Shown here: positions 5,696 through 12,785 of the stretch, piece by piece
Position numbering within the stretch: the first letter of the stretch is position 1
Layout: each line of letters starts with the position of its first letter
The notes under the pieces: model-generated
Told to the model about the DNA's origin: nothing
Database searches by the model: none
What the model saw: the letters and a program-made list of their open reading frames with translations, nothing else
Assembly: GCA_934182465.1 (NCBI GenBank)
Contig: CAKPRG010000003.1
Span: forward strand, 109,542-173,541
Direction of reading: 5' to 3'
Length of the DNA stretch: 64,000 nt
Source of the DNA: an uncultured Clostridia bacterium
GTDB lineage: Bacteria > Bacillota > Clostridia > TANB77 > CAG-508
Program-made: the position numbers and the translations under genes

Positions 5696-6397
5696 TTAAT
5701 CTTTTTTACAATTTTCTATAAAATTTAATATTAATTTTTTCATATTTTCATCATATAAAGACATATCTTCTGGGTGCCATTGTACTCCTATTGCAAATTT
5801 TTTATCTTCAAATTCTAATCCCTCTATTAAACCATCTTCTGAAATAGCATTTATTTTTGCATTATTTACTTTTGTTACTGCATATTTATGTCTGCTATTT
5901 ACATCTATTTCTTCTTTTTCTATTATTTCATATAATTTGCTATCTTTTTCAATTTTAACTTTATGGACATATTTTGCTGGTATTTGATTATGATTAATTT
6001 CTTTTTCTATAAATTGTAATATATTGCCTCTTTCTTCACCACAATCGATACTTGCTAGTAATTGCATTCCCATACAAGTTCCTAATACTGGTATATTATT
6101 TTCTAGTACATATTTTGCACAAAAAATATCATAATCATATATTCTATTTCCACCTGGCAAAATAATTCCATCACATAATTTTATTTGTTGTATTAGATCT
6201 TGTTTTTCTTCTTCTGTAAGTTTTCTTGCTTCTCTTGGTCTTGTTTCTTCAAAACATATATCTTGTGTAGGCATAATTAATATAGGAATTCCTCCACAAT
6301 TAGAAACAGCCCTTCTATATCCATCTAAAGCACACATACAAGTTCTATCTGTGTATGTTGTATGTGATTTTGCTATAATTCCAATAACTGGTCTCAT
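5696..6397 (-). CDS. class I glutamine amidotransferase-like / peptidase C26 gamma-glutamyl hydrolase (PuuD-like)
   Basis: Catalytic GTCMGMQ and VQWHPE motifs. True ATG at 6397 with AGGAGG RBS placed 1 nt after the stop of the upstream gene; the longer track ORF uses a TTG inside that gene. Confidence 0.75.
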   Translation of the reverse strand: MRPVIGIIAKSHTTYTDRTCMCALDGYRRAVSNCGGIPILIMPTQDICFEETRPREARKLTEEEKQDLIQQIKLCDGIILPGGNRIYDYDIFCAKYVLENNIPVLGTCMGMQLLASIDCGEERGNILQFIEKEINHNQIPAKYVHKVKIEKDSKLYEIIEKEEIDVNSRHKYAVTKVNNAKINAISEDGLIEGLEFEDKKFAIGVQWHPEDMSLYDENMKKLILNFIENCKKD

Positions 6398-6407
6398 ACT
6401 TCCTCCT

Positions 6408-8492
6408 TTATTTATCTGGATCACCCCATAAATCAAGTGTTTTTTGCATATCTTCTTTTGTTCTTGGTTCTAGTAATTCCTTAGTAGCTACTCTGACTCC
6501 GTTTAATTTTTCTGAAAACATTCTTACTGCATCATTTCCTCTATTGGGTGAATATCGTAAACTTCCATTTTTCATTTTATTTGTCGCAATTTGCTGTTGC
6601 AAACCACCATTTTCTGCTCTTAGCCTTTCTATTTCTGATACTCGTTTCGTTCCATTTCCAGCTACTGCTAGCAAATTTCTTCCAGGTTCAGCATTTATTT
6701 TTGCTTGTGCTAATTTTAATATATGTTCTTTTGAAAAACTTTTTAATTGACCATTTTGTCCTTTACTACCAAAAATATTAGTTATATTATTATACAAATT
6801 AAGCATTTCCGGTGTAAAATTTCCATCAAATTCTGTAATTGCACAAGCATATAAATCTGCTAATATATCTTTTACACTATATCGTTCTTTTTCTTCTGGT
6901 ATTTCTGTCATAATTGCTTCTGCTTTTAAATCAATATTTTTAAGTTTTTCATCTTTTAGTTCGTCTTTACCTAGCAATTTCCCAAAGAATCCTACTTTTT
7001 CTGTTTGTATTGTTTCTCGTTCTGAATTTAGTTTACCAAGTTTTGCGTTTTTAATTACTTGATTTGCTTTTAAATACAAGCTTCTTTTTAGTTCATATTC
7101 CATTTGATTTGCATGAATTTGAGCAAAATCAGGATTTCCTTGTAATATTTGACTTGCATAAGATATACCATCTAAATATGGAGAATATTTTTCAGTTTTT
7201 TCATCAATTTCTTCTTGTGACATATCTTCTTGCACAGTAACACCTTGTAAATTTTTTTCTATATCAGTAATATTAAAAGTTATATCTTCAATTATATTAT
7301 CTAATAAATTTACTCTTGTTTGAGGTTGAAAATTTATTCCTAAAGAACGTGCTATTTGTTGCATATTTCTTTCATTATATAGCATTTGATTATATGTATC
7401 ATTAATTTTATATGTAATTCTATTAGACTCAACAGGTTCATTGTTTAATTTTTTTCCTAATTCTGTTATTGAGCTTTTTCTTCTTTCTTCAATTTCAGCT
7501 TTTTCCCTTGCTATTCTTTCCTCTTCTAATCTCTTTTGTTCTGTCTCTTTTCTAGCTATTGCTTCTTGCTTTGCTCGTTCTTCTGCCTCTTTTTTTGCTT
7601 GTTCTACCATTTTTGTTGCTTCAGAAATTTCTTTTATTTTTTGAGCACATCTTCCTTGTAAATATTTTTGTAATCTTTCAGTATAACTTGATGTTTTACT
7701 TTTAAATTCATCAACTAATCTTTTATCTTCTTCAATTTTTTCTTTCAAAAATTCTATATCATCATCATCCAAAGTTCTAGACAAAGAAGCCTCATGACTT
7801 TCAAGTCTTCCTATTTGCTTTTCATATTCTTTTATATCAGCTAAATTTTGTTCAAATCCATCATATACATCATCTTCTAAATCTTTCATTTCTTCATCCG
7901 AAACATTACGAACTCCAGGATTATAAACTGTAAAATAGCAATAATTAAAATCTCCTCTTGTACTAAATTCTTCTCTTTTAGCAACTTTAACAAATGGTGC
8001 TAAAATTACTTCTTTTTCATCTCTTCTATTAGGATCTCTATAATCATCTACATTTAAAAATGGTACACCACTAGCAACTTCCATCTTAAGTAAAGTTCCC
8101 GTTTTTCCATATTCACAGAAAGATTTTGCAACTGTTTCATCTTTGCTTATTGATATAAATTGCTTTGCTGTTCCAAGTAAAGCCTTTGCTCTTTCTAAAC
8201 TTGTTCCTCTATACAAATTTCTACTCTCTGTGTATCCAATACTGTCTTTTAAGCTCTTCTTTTGAGATGTTTTATACATAGCAGAATATAAATTAACAAA
8301 ATCTTCTATATCTTCTCTTAAATACTTTTCTCCGCCAGACCAATCGCAAATATGTGATACTTCTCTATATGCTTCTGGTGTAAAATCTGCTAGCATATTT
8401 ATTCTAGGATGTTTATAATTCAAATAATTATCAATTGAGTTTCTTTCTTCACTAGTTACATTTAATATTTGTTTTGCTTCACTTAACTCCAT
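6408..8492 (-). CDS. cytoplasmic multidomain protein with N-terminal ADP-ribosyltransferase (R-S-ExE, ADPrib_exo_Tox-like) domain, central coiled coil, unknown C-terminal domain
   Basis: NLYRG (Arg), FISIS (STS-like) and DEKEVILAPF (ExE) motifs with canonical spacing; no signal peptide; KE-rich coiled coil around residues 290-350. Confidence 0.6.
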   Translation of the reverse strand: MELSEAKQILNVTSEERNSIDNYLNYKHPRINMLADFTPEAYREVSHICDWSGGEKYLREDIEDFVNLYSAMYKTSQKKSLKDSIGYTESRNLYRGTSLERAKALLGTAKQFISISKDETVAKSFCEYGKTGTLLKMEVASGVPFLNVDDYRDPNRRDEKEVILAPFVKVAKREEFSTRGDFNYCYFTVYNPGVRNVSDEEMKDLEDDVYDGFEQNLADIKEYEKQIGRLESHEASLSRTLDDDDIEFLKEKIEEDKRLVDEFKSKTSSYTERLQKYLQGRCAQKIKEISEATKMVEQAKKEAEERAKQEAIARKETEQKRLEEERIAREKAEIEERRKSSITELGKKLNNEPVESNRITYKINDTYNQMLYNERNMQQIARSLGINFQPQTRVNLLDNIIEDITFNITDIEKNLQGVTVQEDMSQEEIDEKTEKYSPYLDGISYASQILQGNPDFAQIHANQMEYELKRSLYLKANQVIKNAKLGKLNSERETIQTEKVGFFGKLLGKDELKDEKLKNIDLKAEAIMTEIPEEKERYSVKDILADLYACAITEFDGNFTPEMLNLYNNITNIFGSKGQNGQLKSFSKEHILKLAQAKINAEPGRNLLAVAGNGTKRVSEIERLRAENGGLQQQIATNKMKNGSLRYSPNRGNDAVRMFSEKLNGVRVATKELLEPRTKEDMQKTLDLWGDPDK

Positions 8493-8700
8493 ATTTTTTC
8501 TCCTTTAATTGTATTTATTTTATAAATATAATAGAAAAAAGTCAATATGCAAAGTTGGACATAAGCATTTATATAATAGAAAGTACAAAGTACTTTCATA
8601 TTATATTAAAAAGATGACAATTCCTTTTAGAATTGCCACCCTACAAAATATTAATATTTAATTAATATATAAATAATTCAATTAATATTATTAATTATTA

Positions 8701-11187: not shown

Positions 11188-11466
11188 TTATATTTCCTCC
11201 ACAAAACTTATTTTTTTAATATTATATGGTATATTTTTAAATATACTTTTTAATTCCACTAGTTAATTCTAGATTATAGCACATTTTTTACATAATATCA
11301 ATATTTTTTGTAGAATTATGTAAAGTTTCTATATATTTTATACATTTGTTTTTATGGATTTTTTACATAATTTTTTCAAAAACTTAGCACAATAAACAAA
11401 AATGTGAGCATTTTCATAAAATTTTGTTTTTTAAGATTATCATTATGCACAATTTTGCTTCGTATT

Positions 11467-12399
11467 TTACGCTAATTTTTCTAAATATCTTTTTTTCATT
11501 TTATCTGAAGAATGAACATATCTATTTAATGTAATACTAACATCAGAATGACCTAATATTTCACTTAATGATTTTACATCCATTCCTACATTTATACAGT
11601 CTGTTGCAAAAGTATGTCTTAAACAATGGAAATTTCTATAATTTACTCTGCATTCATCTAAACATTTTTTAAAAGTATATTGATACCCTCTTGGTTCTAA
11701 AAAGTGTTTGCTATTTCCTGTTAAGAAAAAATCTTCTTTTTTATAGTTTTCTTTAATTTCTTTTAGTTTACTATACACTAAGTTTGACATTGGTATACTT
11801 CTTAAACTTTTTTCTGATTTTGGCACATCTATTAAAATTTTGGTAGATTTGCAATCTACATATACTCTTTGCAATGTATGCTTTATATAAATAGTTTTTT
11901 TATTTAGGTCAATATCTTCCCATTTTAAAGCACAAATTTCTCCTATTCTCATACCTGTGTACAAACATAATATAATTCCTAAATCTCTAGTATCATTTGA
12001 ATTTAAGCATTTTGCTTTTATTTTTCTTTTATCATTTGTTGAAAATACTTTTAAATTTTGCATTCTAACTCTCGGTAAATTAATTAATTCTAATTTCATC
12101 TTTATATCATATTTTCTTTCTGCGTATCTTAAAATAGATTTTAAAACTAACAAAATATCTTTTAAGAATTTATTGGAAATATGTGCCTCTTCTAAAAGAT
12201 CATCACTAAATTTATTAAAATCATATTTAGCAATTTCTTCTAATGTTAAGTCTTTAAAAACTGGTAATAAATATTTTTGTATTTTATAAGTATAGTTGAA
12301 ATATGTAGATTCTTTAATTTGTTGTTTTTTGTAAATTAAAAAATCTTCGGTAATATTTTCAAAAGTAACTTTCTTTTGTAATTTAATTATTTTGTTCAT
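11467..12399 (-). CDS. int: site-specific tyrosine integrase (phage integrase family)
   Basis: C-terminal catalytic box R...HxLRHTFAT...LGH...Y; N-terminal SAM-like domain. Confidence 0.85.
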   Translation of the reverse strand: MNKIIKLQKKVTFENITEDFLIYKKQQIKESTYFNYTYKIQKYLLPVFKDLTLEEIAKYDFNKFSDDLLEEAHISNKFLKDILLVLKSILRYAERKYDIKMKLELINLPRVRMQNLKVFSTNDKRKIKAKCLNSNDTRDLGIILCLYTGMRIGEICALKWEDIDLNKKTIYIKHTLQRVYVDCKSTKILIDVPKSEKSLRSIPMSNLVYSKLKEIKENYKKEDFFLTGNSKHFLEPRGYQYTFKKCLDECRVNYRNFHCLRHTFATDCINVGMDVKSLSEILGHSDVSITLNRYVHSSDKMKKRYLEKLA

Positions 12400-12662
12400 A
12401 AATTAACCACCTCTGGCCGTATTCTACTACATTTTCCTTAATTTTTTTAAAAAGTAGAATTATTGACCTTTTTGTCGAATTTTTACACTTTTTGTACTTT
12501 TTCTCCTTTTTTCTTCTTTTTGTCGTATTTTGTCGAAAGCGATGTTTTTGCTTTAATTTTTTTCTTTATCATCTTGTAACAGATTTTTATTTTTTTCATA
12601 CTATGTATTATACAAAAGATAAAGAAAAACAATTAAAATTTCTTTACAAGGAGGGAACAAAT

Positions 12663-12785
12663 ATGCCAGAAAACAGAGGTTGTGGTTGTGGATTCTTAGA
12701 CAATGATTGTTTATGGATTATAATCCTTTTAATTATCATATTCTGCTGTTGTGGAAACAACAATGGTAGAGGTTGTGGTTGCTAG
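12663..12785 (+). CDS. YjcZ-family-like small Cys/Gly-rich sporulation peptide (40 aa)
   Basis: MPENRGCGCGFLDNDCLWIIILLIIIFCCCGNNNGRGCGC; GGAGGG RBS 7 nt upstream; three TGTCG(A/T)A heptamers upstream. Confidence 0.5.
   Translation: MPENRGCGCGFLDNDCLWIIILLIIIFCCCGNNNGRGCGC

Follow-up and report, generated by a model that had tools for sequence, protein, structure and literature searches.

The locus raises the question of whether the genes between rpmF and groEL, within a 64,000-nucleotide stretch of DNA from an uncultured Clostridia bacterium (the window), form a defence operon delivered by an integrase, as an earlier note had proposed. The domain calls of that note were right: the block encodes an adenosine deaminase (ADA) whose active site is intact and which ends in a SLOG domain (ADA-SLOG), an ADP-ribosyltransferase (ART) with an R-S-ExE motif, a C26 hydrolase and an integrase. 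We propose, with a probability of roughly 55%, that this is not an integrase-delivered defence operon, and that four units of differing history are juxtaposed here, with ADA-SLOG functioning as a purine-pool enzyme.

The ADA-SLOG gene (8701..11187, minus strand) encodes 828 aa in three regions: a beta-rich N-terminal domain with no assigned fold (aa 1-135; nt 10783-11187), a TIM barrel of the adenosine deaminase family that contains a helical insertion (aa 136-600; nt 9388-10782) and, at the C-terminal end, a SLOG domain (aa 636-828; nt 8704-9282). The protein belongs to PF00962 (adenosine/AMP deaminase; 70.7 bits against a gathering cutoff of 27), and its scores against the NCBIfam ADA equivalogs all fall far under the cutoffs (TIGR01430: 65.7 vs 216.55 bits). 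The zinc-binding and catalytic residues H144, H146, H440, E443, H475 and D537 are invariant, indicating an intact active site. The Zn/N7-binding motif TDD reads TDG, and because D296 of canonical ADA is a glycine here, the substrate may be unusual. Canonical COG1816 adenosine/adenine deaminases and eukaryotic AMP deaminase are about 500 residues shorter than ADA-SLOG, which differs from them in having the N-terminal beta domain, the helical insertion and the SLOG domain. For the N-terminal domain there was no Pfam match and nothing significant in PDB sequence and profile searches. The fusion as such is captured by no Pfam, NCBIfam or PADLOC model, and we found no description of it in the literature; the SLOG domain alone, used as a homolog query, recovered fragments of the ADA-SLOG family only and no other architectures.

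The C-terminus has a Rossmann-like SLOG/LOG fold with invariant residues at GGS (650-652), G687/G692, GIYKSFNYEIFERR (744-757) and DGNxP (765-769). These Gly-rich positions suggest a conserved pocket for a putative nucleotide-derived ligand, and the earlier proposal that the SLOG domain gates the deaminase is plausible as a generic idea. The same fold could be read as half of a bifunctional salvage enzyme, in which a LOG/PpnN-like SLOG domain would cleave AMP or another nucleoside monophosphate to the base and ribose-5-phosphate, and the ADA domain would deaminate adenine to hypoxanthine. This seems unlikely to us: in a manual sequence comparison (not a structural alignment) DGNSPxxNLxQE stands in place of the LOG motif PGGxGTxxE, and therefore the position of the canonical catalytic Glu, as far as this inferred equivalence goes, is not obviously kept; moreover, TRPM-type non-catalytic SLOG domains score as high against the C-terminus as the catalytic LOG type. 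We infer instead a ligand-regulated purine deaminase, in which binding of a nucleotide-derived small molecule to the SLOG domain would exert allosteric control, positive or negative, over deamination; the substrate would be adenosine, adenine or an adenine nucleotide, converted to the inosine or hypoxanthine form.

Full-length relatives of ADA-SLOG are found in at least 519 species-representative genomes. The 80 loci that we fetched come from distinct assemblies, all of uncultured gut Clostridia, and the gene is single-copy in these loci. Its syntenies with housekeeping genes are clade-specific (pheST-ADA; TadA-ADA; SAS-(HD)-ADA-CTD-rpmF-dCMP deaminase-der, CTD being the helical domain described below), and the ADA-rpmF synteny is kept in many relatives without an integrase. 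The dN/dS of ADA-SLOG is 0.056-0.086, compared with 0.055-0.12 for der, plsY and pyrG and with 0.54-0.67 for the ART in the same comparison; ADA-SLOG is strongly constrained at housekeeping level. No relative was found in phages, plasmids or IMG/VR, with plasmids yielding canonical add only. Comparison of the interval across relatives, which the earlier note had itself suggested, showed ADA-SLOG largely conserved with no integrase. Because the gene is conserved in such relatives and evolves like housekeeping genes, the central reading of the locus as a defence operon is unsupported. We propose that this first unit is monocistronic and vertically inherited throughout a large low-GC clade of gut Clostridia, where it would provide lineage-fixed control of the purine pool and not serve as an accessory immune gene.

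These observations also bear on a possible, though clearly less probable, reading, in which ADA-SLOG would be a hard-wired, single-gene abortive-infection effector similar to Cad1 or ThsA and fixed in the clade; its SLOG domain would sense a phage-induced nucleotide signal (e.g. an ADPR derivative) and set off ATP/dATP deamination, and the CTD or the ART-CTD protein would be a fast-evolving sensor or trigger that the effector can do without. Defence genes usually have a patchy distribution, and the breadth, single copy, selection and syntenies of ADA-SLOG, together with the lack of copies in the phage, plasmid and viral collections, argue against such a role. Most genomes are without a signal-generating partner, ART alleles change without matching change in ADA (sister species L008 has no ART), and in structure the ADA core resembles metabolic ADAs more closely than it does Cad1 or RdrB. 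In a set of 1.8 billion representatives, a wider family with the same N-extension, ADA and SLOG domains at 28-37% identity forms 860 clusters (50% identity). It is rare and sporadic, and one member adjoins an IceA/Dam restriction-modification pair and a KilA-N gene, a pattern in keeping with accessory or defence genes.

Work on bacterial immunity has recently brought to light adenosine deaminases fused to sensors (Cad1, RADAR, Kongming), and ligand sensing in Thoeris and in TRPM channels falls to SLOG domains. Cad1, the CARF-ADA effector of type III CRISPR (PDB 8z3k), follows the same sensor-plus-ADA logic, but the PADLOC match to its model spans positions 260-561 only, i.e. the ADA part, no CARF sensor was recognised in the N-terminal domain, and no cas genes occur in the neighbourhoods examined; PADLOC and PHROGs otherwise returned generic integrase and GATase matches and weak noise. 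ThsA of type I Thoeris (SIR2-SLOG) likewise uses SLOG as a sensor, but its effector is a SIR2 NADase, whereas that of ADA-SLOG is a deaminase. The SLOG domain is better matched by those of TRPM, LOG and MCP type than by ThsA, the distribution of ADA-SLOG, set against that of ThsA, is neither patchy nor island-associated, and no protein of the region carries a TIR (ThsB) or SIR2 domain. RdrB of RADAR and KomA of Kongming are ADA-family deaminases, as is ADA-SLOG; RdrB acts on ATP/dATP and, at about 800 aa, is similar in overall size. The substrate of the KomA deaminase is dAMP (bioRxiv 10.1101/2024.12.20.629578). We found no RdrA ATPase adjacent to an RdrB deaminase, and neither HAM1 nor SIR2 in the window region. 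In a single relative (L005) ADA is preceded, two genes upstream, by a Ham1 gene that scores as an ordinary RdgB/HAM1, and Kongming was rejected on these grounds and for the missing SIR2.

The transcription signals speak to the earlier description of a tightly packed three-gene operon, which holds for ART and C26 and fails for ADA and ART. The ribosome-binding site and ATG of C26 come directly after the ART stop codon, indicating close translational coupling, but ADA and ART are split by a gap of 208 nt that holds a predicted intrinsic terminator directly 3' of the ADA-SLOG stop codon (8611..8642, minus strand; read 8642-8611) and a promoter-like site (8545-8517). In relatives, too, ADA is separated from the next gene by a predicted terminator and a promoter-like site, with hairpin and T-run terminators after ADA in most of those examined. 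Upstream of ADA-SLOG, a consensus scan located the promoter-like site TTGATA-17-TGnTATAAT (11273..11301, minus strand), which agrees with 11/12 consensus positions plus an extended -10 TG and is a consensus match only; an Rfam search of this upstream region gave no riboswitch or leader. A 49-nt direct repeat lies just upstream of the ART promoter-like site (8549..8597, minus strand), with a second copy upstream of the dCMP deaminase gene (5192-5240). The copies are 82% identical, their 22-nt core is found twice against 0 expected by chance, and the ART-proximal copy is missing from the alternative allele in the conspecific L092.

A separate transcription unit for ADA, as predicted here, is one of several points against a three-gene, integrase-mobilised, Thoeris-like system, in which the ART would produce an ADPR-derived signal from NAD+, the SLOG domain would activate the deaminase in response and C26 would recycle an intermediate. 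All three domain types are present with intact catalytic motifs, the three genes lie side by side and share a strand in the window's species, L009, L092 and L095, and the known binding of ADPR-type ligands by SLOG domains (ThsA, TRPM2) would fit such a pathway. However, the full trio is seen in the window's species and in only one of its sisters (L009, which has both ART and C26); in L008, ADA is followed directly by rpmF with neither partner, L007 has an ART homolog and no C26, and in about 60/83 species loci neither partner lies within 10 kb of ADA. The ART homolog of L005 has lost the ExE glutamates (GIQ), and in L094 the 1.7 kb upstream of an ART homolog contains no ADA gene. We regard this reading as very improbable, and it is already contradicted by comparative genomics.

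The C26 gene (5696..6397, minus strand; 233 aa, ATG at 6397) encodes a peptidase C26/class-I glutamine amidotransferase-like hydrolase that scores well above the family cutoffs (PF07722, 115.4 bits, 4e-33, vs 20.5; PF00117, 70.8 vs 22.8), with its best NCBIfam matches all far under the equivalog cutoffs. In L010 and L005 the orthologs adjoin rpmF, and the gene directly upstream is CNNM and not ART. C26 tracks rpmF (and CNNM), not ART, which again counts against a joint system. It would be an old neighbour of rpmF that is here co-transcribed with ART by chance.

The 694-aa ART-CTD protein (6408..8492, minus strand) starts with a putative C3-like ART head (aa 1-~215; nt ~7848-8492), continues into a coiled coil and carries towards its C-terminal end a conserved helical domain, the CTD (aa ~456-670; nt ~6483-7127). 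The catalytic motif R95/S114/E159xE161 is present and conserved. PF03496 is matched by 3/8 relatives (best 6e-8; 28.2 bits vs a gathering cutoff of 23.4), and the window protein itself has no match in Pfam, nor did its head return anything significant in PDB sequence and profile searches. The head shares the R-S-ExE motif with C3-like/PF03496 ADP-ribosyltransferase exoenzymes, and its N-terminal helix region carries 'Y-x-x-H-x-x-IN-x-L', which we take to be typical of that family. Unlike those exoenzymes, the window ART has no evident signal peptide (the N-terminus was inspected by eye), forms the N-terminus of a longer protein that also carries a coiled coil and the novel, helical CTD, and varies by allelic swapping among strains of the species.

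Stand-alone homologs of the CTD, 180-230 aa long, are encoded by other species in the interval from ADA to rpmF; PDB sequence and profile searches with the CTD gave nothing significant. Such a protein occupies the ADA-rpmF slot alone in about 17 species (genome scan) and in 9 further metagenome loci, and the conserved ADA-proximal neighbour in one subclade is this non-ART CTD. The adjacency is kept at ADA divergence down to 54-60% identity, and therefore some functional link of ADA to the CTD is still conceivable. The short protein was also considered as a YceD/DUF177 partner of rpmF and rejected, because it has no Pfam match.

The ART head and the ADA-ART intergenic region form a hypervariable cassette (7650..8700, minus strand) that is swapped between conspecific strains: between the window and L092 the cassette has 62-74% nucleotide identity and the flanks 97-99%. 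A protein-level mosaic is seen in P0123-P0125, strains of the same species with 99.3% ADA identity carry swapped heads, and the ART is only 36% identical in sister species whose ADA is 90% identical. We looked for a conserved immunity-like partner downstream of ART and found none. These results indicate that ART is not a conserved partner of ADA-SLOG; with C26 following rpmF, the treatment of the three proteins as one system is not supported. Head exchange between strains is a signature of a conflict-type gene (toxin or defence), independent of ADA. We propose that the ADA-rpmF interval is a variable slot, ancestrally holding a small helical CTD protein in one subclade, and that in the window's species the CTD was fused via the coiled coil to a C3-like ART head, which would be exchanged by recombination between strains and act independently of ADA.

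The tyrosine recombinase (11467..12399, minus strand; PF00589, PF14659; phrog_1 integrase, 1.7e-56) occupies the same position in the window's species and three sister species, with 77-78% identity and a dN/dS of 0.13-0.17 against the sister species. It is missing beside ADA in all more distant relatives (the 80 fetched and other loci sampled), and is younger than the ADA-rpmF linkage. Among relatives ADA is always present, ART and C26 vary and the integrase is limited to the closest species, a distribution at odds with an integrase-borne island and with an integrase-mobilised trio. Nor does the block resemble an insertion between rpmF and groEL: its GC content equals that of the flanks, no tRNA lies within 28 kb, no direct repeats bound it, and searches around the integrase for att-like repeats or invertible-promoter inverted repeats gave short AT-rich matches only. 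An integrative genomic island was rejected on these grounds, despite the integrase. Next to the recombinase gene, an ORF for a 40-aa Cys/Gly-rich hydrophobic peptide (12663..12785, plus strand), followed by a terminator (12810-12844), is conserved in relatives (92-100% in L007, L008, L009 and L092) and gave no match in family searches. Recombinase and peptide gene would form a fourth unit at a genus-level synteny breakpoint, where groESL was joined to ADA, and are probably retained under purifying selection.

A bolder version, which we consider doubtful, would make ADA-SLOG a ligand-gated ATP/dATP (or AMP/dAMP) deaminase and fixed antiviral effector across an order-level clade of human and animal gut Clostridia, with the CTD docking on it and interchangeable ART heads, captured in some species, making or relaying an ADP-ribose-type signal, i.e. 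a Thoeris/Cad1-like pathway that is chromosomally fixed and not mobile. If ADA-SLOG is metabolic, as we favour, it would represent a step of purine metabolism under allosteric control that has gone unrecognised in this abundant, uncultured lineage of the gut; if it is defensive, a defence-type effector would be able to become a core gene. The ART gene, with its strain-level head swapping, is a separate and clean case of cassette exchange in a putative intracellular ADP-ribosyltransferase.

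The gene map of the window holds, on the minus strand, all the genes that an earlier note had listed between rpmF and groEL. Below groES-groEL (14822-12888) lie a tyrosine recombinase (12399-11467; Pfam Phage_integrase, 3e-28), an 828-aa adenosine deaminase-family protein with a C-terminal SLOG domain (ADA-SLOG, 11187-8701; A_deaminase, 1.5e-19), a 694-aa protein with an ADP-ribosyltransferase (ART) head (8492-6408), a peptidase C26/GATase-like hydrolase (6397-5696; Peptidase_C26, 4e-33), rpmF (5528-5346) and a dCMP deaminase (5105-4614). The GC content at 5.5-12.5 kb (0.21-0.31) equals that of the flanks, and a repeat search found no direct repeats bounding the block. 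The only tRNA of the window, Thr-GGT, is at 41.4 kb (41369-41441, minus strand); together with a bacterial RNase P class A RNA (47208-47551, minus strand, 269.6 bits) it is an ordinary core feature, confirming a chromosomal context.

To compare neighbourhoods, we used tblastn of the window's neighbours against the fetched loci and all-against-all clustering of ORFs. The integrase and groESL adjoin ADA-SLOG only in three sister-species loci (L007, L008 and L009, whose ADA is 90-91% identical to that of the window) and in the conspecific contigs L092, L093 and L095. In other loci the gene sits in several clade-specific syntenies with housekeeping genes: pheS-pheT-ADA; NRPS-like, trypsin-like protease, M23 peptidase, TadA, ADA; and small alarmone synthetase, (HD), ADA, short protein, rpmF, dCMP deaminase, PTPS-related, der. 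Because the integrase is limited to the closest sister species and conspecifics, the ADA-rpmF linkage predates it and ADA-SLOG is not its cargo, which overturns the reading of the interval as an island. With each species represented by a single genome, the scan found full-length relatives in at least 519 genomes; all 80 that we fetched are from uncultured gut Clostridia MAGs, with one locus per assembly (among them Clostridium sp. CAG:389 and CAG:575, Ca. Scatovivens and Ca. Merdicola). INPHARED phages, PLSDB plasmids and IMG/VR contigs yielded no relatives of ADA-SLOG (in PLSDB, canonical add only) or of the ART protein. In pairwise comparisons with the sister species, the dN/dS of ADA-SLOG (0.06-0.09) matches that of der, plsY, pyrG and dCMP deaminase (0.05-0.12); values are 0.13-0.17 for the integrase and 0.54-0.67 for the ART gene. 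These comparisons show that ADA-SLOG has been conserved vertically across the clade under strong constraint, and that the integrase arrived recently.

The transcription signals are independent. ADA-SLOG has its own strong promoter-like site (11301-11273), and the 208 nt that separate it from the ART gene include a predicted intrinsic terminator at 8642-8611 and, at 8545-8517, another promoter-like site; the three genes, previously described as a tightly packed operon, thus form two predicted transcription units, with ADA-SLOG apart from ART-C26. A strong hairpin and T-run likewise follow ADA in other species, and after them a conserved TTGAAT...TGnTAAAAT element precedes the next gene. The ART and C26 genes are close-coupled: the ART stop codon TAA is directly followed by AGGAGG, with the C26 ATG 10 nt past the stop, which places the C26 start at 6397. 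A mobile three-gene defence operon is not supported. We also observed a 49-nt direct repeat (5192-5240 and 8549-8597, 82% identity), whose 22-nt core occurs twice versus 0 expected by chance; the copies lie upstream of the dCMP deaminase and ART genes, each just past a predicted terminator. The alternative ART allele of L092 lacks the copy near ART, a sign that a promoter or leader may have been captured during cassette exchange.

The varying part of the locus is the space between ADA-SLOG and rpmF. This slot is empty in L008, where ADA directly precedes rpmF; in L007 it holds a 665-aa ART homolog (36% identity) and then an unrelated 228-aa ORF, without C26, and in L009 an ART homolog (37% identity, split into 595 and 82 aa) and C26 (79%). 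In the more distant L010 (ADA 69%) it holds CNNM, then C26, and in L005 (ADA 64%) an ART-like 656-aa protein (L005 10671-12641), then CNNM, then C26; the ExE of this protein has degenerated to G-I-Q, and it is probably an inactive ART kept with its coiled coil. Only a 180-230-aa protein occupies the slot in about 17 of the species scanned and in another 9 loci from metagenomes; it is homologous to the helical C-terminal domain (CTD) of the window's 694-aa protein and not to its ART head, so that in this subclade the conserved neighbour of ADA is the CTD. The ART head is a later N-terminal fusion to the CTD, and C26 is a long-standing companion of rpmF, not a partner of ART. No conserved downstream partner of ART was found, and one ART-CTD homolog (P0129, in L094) has a different context, with no ADA in the 1.7 kb upstream.

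The 694-aa protein itself has no Pfam match, PDB profile searches with its head found nothing, and its homolog family is tiny (10 clusters). We accept a C3-like R-S-ExE ART head by transitive homology, since R95, S114 and E159-x-E161 are conserved in the family and PF03496 (ADPrib_exo_Tox) matches three of eight members (best 6e-8, above the gathering score). The head is followed by a long coiled coil and the CTD (aa ~456-670), for which PDB searches gave nothing significant. L092 and L093 have the window's gene order and are 97-99% identical to it in DNA except at 7650-8700, where identity is 62-74%. This segment coincides exactly with the spacer between ADA and ART plus the ART head and its first coiled coil (aa 1-~280), while the remainder of the protein is ~99% and ADA-SLOG 99.3% identical between those strains. 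A divergent head amid near-identical flanks marks an exchangeable allele, a signature of a conflict-type gene. ADA-SLOG does not co-vary with the head allele, and L008 has ADA but no ART, both of which argue against an obligate pathway from ART through SLOG to ADA; the integrase-borne, three-gene Thoeris-like system of the earlier note is very improbable.

In the window species and in three sister species, the recombinase occupies one and the same site between groEL and ADA. It is under purifying selection, and no mobile element can be recognised around it; the gene may have been domesticated or be all that is left of an element at a breakpoint in synteny. The 40-aa Cys/Gly-rich hydrophobic peptide (MPENRGCGCGF...GRGCGC; 12663-12785, plus strand) is indeed encoded beside it, with its own terminator and 92-100% conservation in sister species, but it matches no NCBIfam or Pfam family, so the label "YjcZ-like" reflects compositional resemblance only. 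Elsewhere in the neighbourhood, a PTPS-related membrane protein downstream of dCMP deaminase (2936-4588, minus strand) evolves unusually fast (56-58% identity and dN/dS ~0.4 versus sister species; other genes there are 90-98% identical). A Band7/SPFH and zinc-ribbon gene adjoining groES (14997-15948, minus strand) consists of two overlapping ORFs (64 and 262 aa) in the window and L092 and is one 317-aa ORF in sister species (L001/L009). A frameshift or an alternative start could explain this, or the gene could be a pseudogene.

ADA-SLOG comprises an N-terminal beta-rich domain (135 residues, no Pfam or PDB match), a deaminase barrel and the SLOG domain. Its active site is intact: across 22 aligned full-length homologs (60-100% identity), H144-x-H146, H440-A-G-E443, H475 and D537 are invariant, and Gly takes the place of the second Asp in the canonical TDD motif. 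The AlphaFold model (pLDDT 79.5, pTM 0.77) has the SLOG fold, as the sequence-only reading had correctly proposed. None of the models in Pfam, NCBIfam and PADLOC spans this architecture, and no description was found in the literature searched. The protein belongs with sensor-fused ADAs: Cad1, which also joins a sensor domain to an ADA, is the closest likeness in working, and ThsA and TRPM2 share the SLOG sensor. ADA-SLOG lacks the defining components of Cad1 (CARF and CRISPR), Thoeris (TIR and SIR2), RADAR (RdrA) and Kongming (HAM1 and SIR2).

An HMMER search run exhaustively over 1.84 billion cluster representatives recovered only 860 proteins at E<=1e-3. The gut-Clostridia group is at 54-58% identity; beyond it are 700-1000-aa proteins at 28-37%, many sharing the layout of N-extension, ADA and SLOG, and one carrying an extra nucleoside-deoxyribosyltransferase-like domain. 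One distant copy, in Christensenellaceae, adjoins an IceA/Dam restriction-modification pair and a KilA-N gene, and another overlaps a 162-aa ORF. Given its sporadic spread, this wider family as a whole may have originated in defence; for the clade, a hard-wired Cad1/ThsA-like immune effector is a possible but doubtful account. A bifunctional salvage enzyme, combining LOG-type nucleotide cleavage with adenine deamination, is unlikely. In Ignavibacteriales, a Nudt16-like NUDIX gene lies immediately downstream of the ADA-SLOG homolog in housekeeping surroundings (L088 12213-12737), and upstream of the L005 homolog (L005 4498-7766) are an RdgB/Ham1 XTP/dITP diphosphatase, an HDIG protein, a NUDIX protein and a small alarmone synthetase. 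That two unrelated loci have inosine nucleotide-cleaning enzymes near their ADA-SLOG homologs hints at a deaminase acting on nucleotides.

We propose that a nucleotide-type ligand would bind the SLOG domain and control the deaminase, and that ADA-SLOG would serve a fixed function in purine-pool control in this clade; we give this reading as a whole a probability of about 0.55. Two genuine and testable findings stand: an uncharacterised ADA-SLOG enzyme that spans the clade, and beside it an ART gene that swaps cassettes.
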